Of a stretch of DNA of 64,000 bases, positions 6,133-9,006 are shown piece by piece. The DNA is taken from the NCBI RefSeq assembly GCF_057098645.1, contig NZ_CM169472.1; one strand, given 5' to 3'. Position numbers and translations under genes: made by a program. The first letter of the stretch is position 1. Each line of letters begins with the position of its first letter. The notes below the pieces were generated by a model. It was given only the letters and a program-made list of their open reading frames with translations. It ran no database searches and was not told the DNA's origin.

Positions 6133-6878
6133 ATGAGTAATATTGTTTATCTGACAGTAACGGGAGAACAACAAGGAAGCATCTCCGCAGGTTGTGGGAC
6201 TACTTAATCTATAGGTAATCGCTGGCAGAGCGGGCATGAGAATGAAATATTTACATTCTCACTCGCAAATAGCATTACTAATACGGGGCTTGGTTCACAG
6301 TTACAGGGTATAACATTTTGTAAATTAATTGATAAAAGCACTCCATTACTTATTAATTCCATTAACAATAATGAGCAATTATTTATGGAATTTGACTTTT
6401 ATAGAATCAATAGATTTGGCAGATGGGAAAAGTATTATTATATACAACTAAGAGGCGCTTTTTTATCGGCTATTCATCATCAGATCATTGAAAATCAACT
6501 GGATACAGAAACAATAACTGTTAGTTATGAATTTATCCTCTGTCAACATCTTATCGCAAATACCGAGTTCAGCTATTTGGTTGGCACTCCCTGAAAATTA
6601 TAACCGTTTGTTTTTACCAAATTCAAAAAACCAAACAAATAATGGTTTCAAAACGTTAAACAGCAAAGCTGTTGGCAGGCTACTTGCTGCTGGTGGCGTA
6701 TACAATGGGAACATTGAAGGTTTCAGAGATACTGCGGAAAAACTGGGTGGAGATGCAATCAAAGGCTATGATCAAATACTAAATGAAAAAACAGCGGGCA
6801 TAGCGATAGCAACAGCATCTATTCTTTTAACAAAGCGTTCTAAAGTTGATACATATACAGAAATAAATAGTTACTTAG
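6133..6878 (+). pseudogene. yhhZ: Hcp-domain-fused toxin gene, 5' part (Hcp-ET type T6SS effector); in-frame TAA at 6205-6207 and a frameshift in the 6527-6594 overlap
   Basis: ATG 6133 encodes MSNIVYLTVTGEQQGSISAGCGTT then stop; same frame reopens 6208..6594 (SIGNRWQSGHENEIFTFSLANSITNTGLGSQLQGITFCKLIDK...), then shifts to the 6527..6925 frame and runs into the IS5 end; AT-rich; positional equivalent of K-12 yhhZ (symbol assigned by position, from memory). Confidence 0.6.
6875..6878. repeat. Target-site duplication TTAG (left copy) of the IS5 insertion
   Basis: TTAG immediately precedes the IS left terminus GGAAGGTGCGAATAAGC at 6879; identical TTAG follows the right terminus at 8075. Confidence 0.7.
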
Positions 6879-8074
6879 GGAAGGTGCGAATAAGCAGGTC
6901 ATTTCTTCCCAAGCTGACTCGTTGATTAAAATTTCGCGGATCTGGGCCGATTTTTTTCCCGCAAACACATCGAATCAGCCTATTTAGGCTATTTTTTCCA
7001 CCATTTCTGGCGTTATTTCCGGTTTTTACTGAGATCTCTCCCACTGACGTATCATTTGGTCCACCCGAAACAGGTTGGCCAGGGTGAATAACATCGCCAG
7101 TTGGTTATCGTTTTTCAGCAGCCCCTTGTATCTGGCTTTCACGAAGCCGAACTGCCGCTTGATGATGCGAAACGGGTGCTCCACCCTGGCACGGATGCTG
7201 GCTTTCATGTATTCGATGTTGATGGCCGTTTTGTTCTTGCGCGGATGCTGCTTCAAGGTTTTTACCTTGCCGGGACGCTCGGCGATCAGCCAGTCCACAT
7301 CCACCTCGGCCAGCTCCTCGCGCTGTGGCGCTCCTTGGTAGCCGGCATCGGCTGAGACAAATTGCTCCTCTCCATGAAGCAGATTACCCAGCTGATTGAG
7401 GTCATGCTCGTTGGCCGCGGTGGTGACTAGGCTGTGGGTCAGGCCACTCTTGGCATCGACACCAATGTGGGCCTTCATGCCAAAGTGCCACTGATTGCCT
7501 TTCTTGGTCTGATGCATCTCCGGATCGCGTTGCTGCTCTTTGTTCTTGGTAGAGCTGGGTGCCTCAATGATGGTGGCATCCACCAAAGTGCCTTGGGTCA
7601 TCATGACGCCTGCTTCGGCCAGCCAGCGATTGATGGTCTTGAACAATTGACGGGCCAGTTGATGCTGCTCGAGCAGGTGGCGGAAATTCATGATGGTGGT
7701 GCGATCCGGCAGGGCGCTATCCAGAGATAATCGGGCAAACAGGCGCATGGAGGCGATTTCGTACAGGGCATCTTCCATGGCACCGTCGCTCAGGTTGTAC
7801 CAATGCTGCATGCAGTGAATACGCAGCATGGTCTCCAGCGGATAGGGCCGTCGGCCATTGCCCGCCTTGGGATAAAACGGCTCGATGACAGCGGTCATAT
7901 TCTGCCATGGCAGAATCTGCTCCATGCGGGAGAGGAAAATCTCTTTTCGGGTCTGACGGCGCTTAGTGCTGAATTCACTATCGGCGAAGGTGAGTTGATG
8001 GCTCATGATGTCCCTCTGGGATGCGCTCCGGATGAATATGATGATCTCATATCAGGAACTTGTTCGCACCTTCC
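6879..8074 (-). mobile_element. IS5-family insertion sequence (about 1196 bp) with terminal inverted repeats
   Basis: Left end GGAAGGTGCGAATAAG (6879-6894), right end ...TGTTCGCACCTTCC (8061-8074) are inverse complements; contains one 326 aa DDE transposase ORF; flanked by a 4 bp TTAG direct repeat. Confidence 0.9.
7026..8006 (-). CDS. insH: IS5 transposase (InsH-like, DDE)
   Basis: 326 aa [39 protein letters not shown]... closely matching IS5 InsH as I recall it. Confidence 0.9.
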
Positions 8075-8078
8075 TTAG
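8075..8078. repeat. Target-site duplication TTAG (right copy)
   Basis: See left copy at 6875-6878. Confidence 0.7.
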
Positions 8079-8515
8079 GCAAACTTAGAGGTCAACAAAA
8101 ACTTCTTGATGGCATAGACATAATAGAAATAAAATACATTAAGAGACCTTCAAAAGACTTAGCTAACTTACGAAAGGAGTTTAACAAAACTGTAAGAAAA
8201 AATTTTCTTATCAAACTTGCAAAAACCTCCGAAGCATCTGGAAGATTCAACGCCGAAGACCTTTTAAGAATGAGAAAGGGCTATGTTCCTCTAAATTATA
8301 ATGTTCACCATAAACTATCTCTAGATGATGGTGGTACTAATGATTTCGAAAATTTAGTATTAATCGAAAACGAACCATATCATAAAGTTTTTACTAACAT
8401 GCAATCACGAATAGCTAAGGGAATATTAGTAGGTGAAAGCAAAATCACTCCCTGGGCCATTCCATCTGGCTCAATTTATCCTCCCATGAAAAATATTATG
8501 GAACCCACAAAATGA
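8075..8515 (+). pseudogene. yhhZ: Hcp-ET toxin gene, 3' part encoding an HNH-type nuclease domain
   Basis: Removing the IS and one TTAG copy joins ...SYL to GKLRGQQKLLDGIDIIEIKY... in frame; C-terminal motif NVHHKLSLDDGGTNDFENLVLIENEPYH is HNH-like; stop TGA 8513-8515 overlaps the next ATG. Confidence 0.65.
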
Positions 8516-9006
8516 TGACTAAAACCCAAATAAACAAATTAATAAAAATGATGAATGATTTAGACTATCCATTTGAAGCACCGCTCAAGGAATCATTTAT
8601 TGAAAGTATAATCCAAATAGAATTTAATTCTAATTCAACTAATTGCCTGGAGAAGTTATGTAATGAAGTTAGTATTCTTTTTAAGAATCAACCTGATTAT
8701 CTTACTTTTTTAAGAGCAATGGATGGATTCGAAGTTAATGGATTGCGATTATTTAGCCTCTCGATTCCAGAACCTTCAGTTAAAAACCTTTTTGCCGTAA
8801 ATGAATTTTATAGAAATAATGATGATTTCATAAACCCTGATCTACAAGAACGGTTAGTGATCGGGGATGATAGCATTTCAATATTTACTTATGACATTAA
8901 AAGTAACTTTTTTGAAATTAGAGATAATATTGGCACAGAAAATATATTCAGTTCGTTTAGTGATTTCTCTTCATTCTTAAACGAAATCATGGACAGTTGT
9001 TCATAA
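8512..9006 (+). CDS. Putative cognate immunity protein of the HNH toxin (164 aa, acidic)
   Basis: ATG overlaps the toxin stop (ATGA); intact ORF MMTKTQINKLIKMMNDLDYPFEAPLKESF...; AT-rich; immediately downstream and co-directional with the toxin; positional equivalent of K-12 yrhA. Confidence 0.55.
   Translation: MMTKTQINKLIKMMNDLDYPFEAPLKESFIESIIQIEFNSNSTNCLEKLCNEVSILFKNQPDYLTFLRAMDGFEVNGLRLFSLSIPEPSVKNLFAVNEFYRNNDDFINPDLQERLVIGDDSISIFTYDIKSNFFEIRDNIGTENIFSSFSDFSSFLNEIMDSCS

Follow-up and report, generated by a model that had tools for sequence, protein, structure and literature searches.

In Hcp-ET1, an orphan Hcp is joined to a DNase of the HNH type; the effector depends on type VI secretion system (T6SS) 2 for its delivery, and ETI1, encoded by the next gene downstream, neutralises it. 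The strains named as sources of Hcp-ET1 are STEC004, 55989 and O104:H4 C227-11 (PMC6730261, PMC6099711, bioRxiv 10.1101/2024.03.05.583533). YhhZ of Escherichia coli has been termed an “evolved Hcp” whose HNH domain is degenerate (PMC2907695), and it has been assigned to group 32 of the His-Me fingers (PMC5714182). The Hcp-ET1 family, its mechanism and the persistence of an orphan immunity gene after decay of its toxin are all already known. Here we describe the yhhZ-yrhA pair in a 64,000-nucleotide stretch of contig NZ_CM169472.1 (assembly GCF_057098645.1), which we refer to as the window. The pair occupies positions 6133-9006, between yhhY and ggt, on a chromosome of the E. coli O145:H28 lineage. 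What the window holds is very probably a dead Hcp-ET1 gene beside an intact gene for ETI1 (YrhA) in a lineage reported to have no complete T6SS, which is a case of ordinary gene decay.

Positions 9000-30000 of the window align in one piece, at a displayed identity of 100.0%, to complete O145:H28 chromosomes (RM12581, RM13514 and others). Apart from the insertion described below, the whole window differs from the genome of RM12761 by 14 substitutions and three small indels.

Decay of the toxin gene yhhZ

An earlier note on this DNA, made from its letters, had given the toxin an Hcp-like N-terminus and an HNH motif at its C-terminus, and both proposals were borne out when the reconstructed protein was searched against Hcp and HNH profiles, the HNH match being the weaker one. 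Residues 18-139 match Pfam T6SS_HCP (E = 1.9e-12), the intact orthologue scores 125 bits against TIGR03344 (cutoff 58.9), and the PDB entries matched are named Hcp3, Hcp and haemolysin co-regulated protein (E = 1.6e-12 to 3.4e-11). The HNH motif HHKLSLDDGGTNDFENLVLIENEPYH is found at 8306-8383. When searched alone, the C-terminal domain gives a weak match to Pfam HNH (E = 0.0037-0.015). At the level of the family, HHK, N88 and N92 do not vary, and H102 hardly varies, among 26 homologues with 35-72% identity, 22 of which match Pfam HNH at E <= 0.1 and six at E <= 0.001. A profile of the domain finds Cas8f-HNH in the PDB at 1e-3 and the colicin E7 DNases at 0.01-0.05. All the invariant residues of the family are retained in the window's copy.

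The yhhY-ggt interval of strain 55989 contains an intact 392-codon tssD (yhhZ) followed by a 164-codon yrhA, and the C227-11 pair is identical to it, with exactly one matching place per genome. Because this is the single matching locus in these two named strains, yhhZ and yrhA would correspond to hcp-ET1 and eti1. The repaired toxin of the window differs from the 55989 allele at 21 of 392 residues (~95% identity). Its gene is a pseudogene of the Hcp-ET1 family and not a working member, because it carries a TAA at codon 25, a 4-bp duplication and a copy of ISKpn26.

All three lesions could be mapped by alignment to the intact locus of other strains, using the intact 392-codon allele of strain 98228 (L002) and the closer intact alleles of A16, ETEC6335 and 88-3493 as references. 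Translation from the ATG at 6133 gives MSNIVYLTVTGEQQGSISAGCGTT and then reaches the TAA (6205-6207), which reads GAA in the intact alleles and results from a G>T change at 6205. The second lesion turns TTGG into TTGGTTGG, the extra copy lying at 6577-6580. This is the sole indel relative to the four intact alleles when the insertion sequence (IS) is removed. Excision of the element together with one TTAG joins ...EINSYL to GKLRGQQ... in frame, and the resulting IS-free reconstruction is 100% identical to RM12761. There, the gene carries the label “frameshifted; internal stop” from the NCBI prokaryotic genome annotation pipeline (PGAP). That it is a pseudogene in O145:H28 is known, as RefSeq already flags it.

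The stop and the duplication are common to 26 of 26 complete O145:H28-lineage genomes, as a 1674-bp version of the locus, and are found in no others. The next best matches, with 99.4% identity, fall short of this length by 4 bp; three of them were fetched, and all three are intact. We conclude that both lesions are old and lineage-wide and that they date from an ancestor shared by the O145:H28 strains sampled. As both occur in the same 26 genomes only, either may have come first. On the same branch yhhZ also acquired R170G, I266K and one synonymous change.

The third lesion is an IS5-family element with a 326-codon transposase open reading frame (ORF) at 7026-8006 on the minus strand (NF033581, 367 bits). 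Its 16-bp terminal inverted repeats (6879-6894 and 8059-8074) differ by one mismatch and have no other occurrence in the window. TTAG is seen on either side, at 6875-6878 and 8075-8078, which agrees with the YTAR target preference of IS5-family elements. IS5 proper was rejected, because copies in other E. coli that are annotated as ISKpn26 match the element at 100% identity. The junction between the element and yhhZ is absent from every complete RefSeq E. coli genome, and look-ups of the exact products of the two junction ORFs gave no match. Furthermore, none of the 26 complete O145:H28-lineage genomes, each with one matching place per record, contains a copy of the left end of ISKpn26. The strain has therefore gained ISKpn26 recently, and may have done so from a plasmid; the element is frequent on E. 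coli plasmids (2938 plasmid places). Thus, the IS is a recent, strain-private insertion into a gene that was already dead. It makes a useful strain marker, and it is the only new detail of the locus.

The earlier note had described yhhZ as inactivated in three independent ways, by an in-frame TAA at codon 25, by a frameshift in the 6527-6594 overlap of two reading frames and by an IS5 insertion. The stop was confirmed, and the frameshift proved to be the TTGG duplication. The insertion is indeed of the IS5 family, with a TTAG duplication, but the element is ISKpn26 and not IS5 itself. The three lesions are separate mutations, as claimed, but not of one age: the stop and the duplication are lineage-wide, and the IS is absent from those 26 genomes.

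ISKpn26 has entered yhhZ in three unrelated strains by independent insertions, at nucleotide 746 in the window, 988 in strain 980-2 and 1061 in AST46. The coordinates of the other insertions are 3562-4756 in L019 and 3635-4830 in L020. In each of the three the transposase reads antisense to yhhZ, a shared orientation that could reflect chance or a local bias. In STEC711 (L021), an IS3 is located at the 5′ end of yhhZ.

In RM12761, the tRNA-Asp site beside dnaQ, the position of O-island 7 (OI-7) in O157:H7, contains only a hypothetical gene and a lone hcp. OI-7 is the T6SS island of O157:H7 and is absent from O145:H28 (PMC5567499). Homologues of five of the 22 T6SS-2 genes have been found in O145:H28, and of the T6SS-1 and T6SS-3 genes none (PMC9144400). 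Loss of the T6SS would be the simplest cause of the decay of yhhZ through relaxed selection, because an Hcp-fused effector is undeliverable without its machine.

The course of events that we propose is as follows. YhhZ would have been an Hcp tube protein bearing an HNH DNase at its C-terminus, delivered by T6SS-2 and neutralised by ETI1 (YrhA). Once the lineage had lost its T6SS clusters the effector could no longer have been fired, selection on it would have been relaxed, and decay would have followed. The nonsense mutation and the 4-bp duplication would go back to an ancestor shared by the sampled O145:H28 strains, and in one strain a copy of ISKpn26 would later have jumped into the gene, by then dead, at a TTAG site. 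Throughout, yrhA would have stayed intact and become an orphan immunity gene. If expressed, YrhA would attach to and inhibit the HNH domain of Hcp-ET1 arriving from the many E. coli with an almost identical toxin.

Some points weigh against this account. The absence of a T6SS from the window's own strain is deduced from related genomes, and the equation of Hcp-ET1 with yhhZ rests on secondary sources together with the single-copy locus in the named strains. With the IS in place, yrhA is cut off from the promoter region of yhhZ, and an intact ORF is not evidence of expression. Finally, K-12, which is also without T6SS (PMC6730261), keeps an intact yhhZ. Loss of the T6SS would therefore be neither a quick nor an inevitable cause of decay.

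The immunity gene yrhA and why it may be intact

The earlier note had pointed out that the 164-codon ORF downstream of the toxin is unbroken and shares an ATGA with the toxin stop, and we found both to be correct (Table 1). YrhA scores 125.5 bits against the YrhA family NF038335 (cutoff 55, residues 4-163). It has no direct match in Pfam, even at E <= 10, and a direct sequence search of the PDB returned noise only, mostly antibody heavy chains. Homologues were collected by a profile search of 1.84 billion representative proteins. Among these, 37 of 95 match Pfam SMI1_KNR4 at E <= 0.001 and many match SUKH_5 or SUKH_6, and the YrhA profile itself matches PDB 2icg at 8.5e-6. A single-sequence AlphaFold2 model was useless, with a predicted local distance difference test score (pLDDT) of 38.6, and was replaced by a model built on the 95-sequence alignment (pLDDT 90.1, predicted template modelling score 0.87). 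The top Foldseek matches of this model in the PDB are all SUKH-fold proteins: 2prv (YobK), 3d5p, 2icg, 6qbq (Knr4), 2pag and 3ffv (Syd). We conclude that YrhA is, by its predicted structure and its intermediate homologues, a divergent member of the SUKH/SMI1-KNR4 superfamily.

SUKH proteins were reportedly described by Zhang, Iyer and Aravind in 2011 as classic immunity partners of nuclease toxins. The YrhA of the window is identical to the 55989 ETI1 allele at 163 of 164 residues. Fold, position and ETI1 orthology agree in making YrhA a predicted immunity protein, and neutralisation by ETI1 has been reported (PMC6730261; bioRxiv 10.1101/2024.03.05.583533).

That yrhA is intact fits the neutral expectation over a short time. 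We see about an even chance that the whole islet is decaying with no selection on any part of it, and that yrhA has merely not been hit yet. The distribution of the lesions agrees with the lengths of the genes: yhhZ offers a target of 1179 bp and yrhA one of 495 bp (2.4-fold), so the probability that three of three lesions fall in yhhZ is 0.35. When the frameshift in yrhB, the islet's other immunity-type gene, is counted as well, the probability that none of four lesions falls in yrhA is 0.34. For the five point or indel changes in yhhZ, the probability that all of them fall there is 0.17. The lineage is also very young at this site. O145:H28 and the closest strains with an intact toxin share one YrhA protein (WP_000988496.1), and their DNA differs at no more than one synonymous site, which leaves no power to detect purifying selection. 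By this measure, too little time would have elapsed for neutral decay to show in yrhA.

Broken alleles of yrhA exist elsewhere. K-12 presents the reverse state, with yhhZ intact and yrhA split by IS1, and in several complete genomes the 392-codon yhhZ is intact but yrhA has a 1-bp deletion and encodes a product of 155 residues. The latter alleles (L009-L015) carry a deletion equivalent to window position 8862, with yrhA at 3001-3468 in L009-L013. An error of long-read assembly was considered for them and rejected, since the deletion lies outside a homopolymer and is also present in contigs assembled from public sequencing runs. In strains with an intact yhhZ and a broken yrhA, it is possible that the toxin gene is silenced or that the truncated YrhA still works. 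When the lineages are scored by which gene was hit first, four have yhhZ and two have yrhA, against an expected 2.4:1 (binomial p = 1.0, in an ad hoc sample). On the other hand, the neutral account is not separable from weak selection with the present data, and the pair is well conserved in the species: it is present at >=80% coverage in 3766 of 5426 complete genomes (3767 holding most of the pair), which suggests that some function is maintained in general.

The earlier note had gone further and proposed that the toxin decays while immunity is kept as protection against kin. The first half of this proposal stands, as a dead toxin gene does lie beside an intact immunity gene, but retention by selection does not follow from lesions whose distribution has a p of ~0.35. 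It is possible, if rather unlikely in our view, that yrhA is actively maintained by purifying selection and that O145:H28 cells lacking it are killed in the gut by E. coli armed with Hcp-ET1 and T6SS-2. The cognate toxin allele is very common, as the pair is >=99% identical to the 55989 allele in 2781 of 5426 complete genomes. YrhA remained unchanged as a protein while yhhZ gained R170G, I266K, the nonsense mutation, the indel and the IS on the same branch. Moreover, yrhA is intact in all three unrelated strains with an IS in yhhZ (980-2, AST46 and STEC711). The protection of cells by orphan immunity genes against non-self T6SS effectors is an established phenomenon, and protection against kin by YrhA would be plausible. 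However, none of the three tests given above (0.35, 0.17 and first hits of 4:2) yields a statistical signal, and the opposite cases, IS1 in the K-12 yrhA and the 155-residue alleles, both occur with an intact yhhZ. The Imm35-family gene yrhB of the same islet is frameshifted, and yrhA would have to be expressed from behind the IS. A scan for consensus promoters gave no excess of sites (10 found, 12.3 expected).

It seems unlikely to us that the orphan yrhA of O145:H28, an E. coli that makes Shiga toxin (STEC) and is devoid of T6SS, is expressed and selected as a shield against Hcp-ET1-armed commensal E. coli in the bovine or human gut. If it were, O157:H7, which is without the islet, would be sensitive to Hcp-ET1, and the presence or absence of yrhA would help to predict which STEC lineages can be excluded by a T6SS-2-positive competitor. 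E. coli armed with Hcp-ET1 are discussed as competitors of STEC in cattle, and the practical angle is modest. A further and less likely twist would be that the HNH ORF, which is still open, makes yrhA addictive.

Such an addiction, in which the nuclease domain is still made in the cell and loss of yrhA is lethal to it in the manner of a toxin-antitoxin pair, is very improbable: the part coding for HNH is itself free of lesions and keeps all the invariant residues, the duplication puts an ATG at 6527 in frame with the linker and the HNH domain in the IS-free allele (a 262-codon ORF), and in the window a 151-codon ORF from a TTG at 8060 in the IS end spans the whole domain, but the ATG is not preceded by a Shine-Dalgarno-like sequence, the AGGA lies only 2 nt before the TTG, the promoter scan showed no excess, and a broken yrhA is tolerated beside a fully intact yhhZ, which argues that the toxin gene is silent or does no harm inside the cell that bears it. 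The AT-rich islet is probably silenced by H-NS, which likewise speaks against it.

Taken together, we conclude that ordinary decay of a toxin gene very probably accounts for the state of the locus, and that the intact yrhA beside it is what would be expected if little time has passed.

The islet and its surroundings

The features of the locus are collected in Table 1. The islet is AT-rich, with a G+C content of 30-36% compared to ~50-58% in its flanks, and the drop from ~53% begins after yhhY. In RM12761, PGAP annotates tssD (yhhZ being the K-12 name), yrhA, yrhD and yrhB.

Table 1. Features of the yhhY-ggt interval in the window.
Feature	Position	Strand	Evidence or remark
yhhY, N-acetyltransferase; conserved left flank of the islet	5408-5896	+	PGAP, identical RM12761 locus
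yhhZ/hcp-ET1 pseudogene, codons 1-24 and premature TAA	6133-6207	+	Translation; alignment to intact alleles L002-L005
Remaining coding sequence of the Hcp (TssD) domain, original frame	6208-6576	+	Pfam T6SS_HCP, residues 18-139
4-bp tandem duplication, +1 frameshift	6577-6580	+	Inside the 6527-6594 ORF overlap
yhhZ linker in shifted frame, ending at left TTAG copy (6875-6878)	6581-6878	+	
ISKpn26 (IS5 family), 1196 bp	6879-8074	-	NF033581, 367 bits; inverted repeats; TTAG duplications
Right-hand TTAG copy of the target-site duplication	8075-8078	+	
HNH (His-Me finger) DNase domain at the C-terminus, itself without a lesion	8079-8515	+	Catalytic motif HH...N...N...H at 8306-8383
yrhA/eti1, intact 164-codon SUKH-fold (predicted) immunity gene	8512-9006	+	Start overlaps the toxin stop as ATGA
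yrhD, small intact ORF of unknown function	9101-9256	+	PGAP, identical RM12761 sequence
yrhB (Imm35 family) pseudogene	9456-9739	+	PGAP “frameshifted”; alignment to intact alleles
ggt, right flank	9777-11510	-	

Neither yrhD nor yrhB has a match in NCBIfam, and intact orthologues of yrhB match Pfam Imm35 (PF15567). The lesion of yrhB is a 1-bp deletion near 9711, which is also present in RM12761 and extends the ORF to 9794 (112 codons versus 94). Thus, yrhB is a second immunity-type gene of the islet, and its frameshift is the fourth inactivating lesion there.

O157:H7 is not among the best 60 matches to the ggt allele, and the locus of strain Sakai was compared directly. Sakai is without yhhZ, yrhA and yrhB and has an unrelated AT-rich cassette (32% GC) in its yhhY-ggt interval (L018, 31010-32864), in which the 303-codon ORF ECs_4291 has no NCBIfam match. 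The yhhY-ggt site is therefore a variable hotspot with alternative cargo.

Just upstream of the islet, the small RNA RyhB is encoded at 5193-5257 on the minus strand (Rfam RF00057, 83 bits), between yhhX and yhhY, its known position. An acetyltransferase toxin-antitoxin pair, AtaT-AtaR, lies beside panM at ~23880-24690, as judged by correspondence with the RM12761 annotation. One of the three indels relative to RM12761 is a 9-bp insertion, CAATCCCAG, at 35228-35236, within or adjoining a small hypothetical gene between zntA and tusA; the remaining two are each of a single base. By the same correspondence, a cluster of ~17 kb between yhhT and acpT (~39970-56800) encodes acyl-carrier, ketoacyl-synthase and MMPL-transporter proteins. 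It is probably O-island 138, which is present in O145:H28 (PMC5567499).

Relation to known systems

Beyond bookkeeping the locus is of small significance, as the pair is characterised, the pseudogene is annotated and the orphan-immunity outcome is well described. The closest described system is Hcp-ET1/ETI1 itself. The window has it in the same yhhY-ggt locus and with the same order of Hcp domain, linker, HNH domain and overlapping immunity gene, but its toxin gene is dead and its host lineage is without the T6SS-2 that would deliver the product.

With regard to the immunity protein, the predicted fold of YrhA resembles Bacillus subtilis YobK (PDB 2prv) and other SUKH proteins, with a Foldseek probability of 1.00 and template modelling scores of 0.51-0.55, and yrhA shares with the genes of SUKH immunity proteins its position directly downstream of a nuclease toxin. 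In sequence, however, YrhA is very divergent from SUKH proteins such as YobK, with 12-16% identity and without a direct Pfam match.

The yhhZ-yrhA′(IS1)-yrhD-yrhB arrangement of K-12 is the same islet, in a background likewise without T6SS and likewise disrupted by an IS. It is nevertheless the mirror image of the window, since in K-12 the toxin ORF survives and the immunity ORF is gone, which speaks against any general rule by which immunity would outlast the toxin here.

Orphan immunity genes of polymorphic toxin systems are exemplified by the T6SS arrays of Vibrio cholerae, the acquired interbacterial defence islands of Bacteroidales and the orphan modules of contact-dependent inhibition (CDI) and Rhs systems. 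Like them, yrhA is intact, has no working cognate toxin in its genome and would face a toxin that is common in conspecifics. Unlike them, it was orphaned in place, by the decay of the neighbouring toxin gene instead of by acquisition or displacement, and any selection for it is putative.

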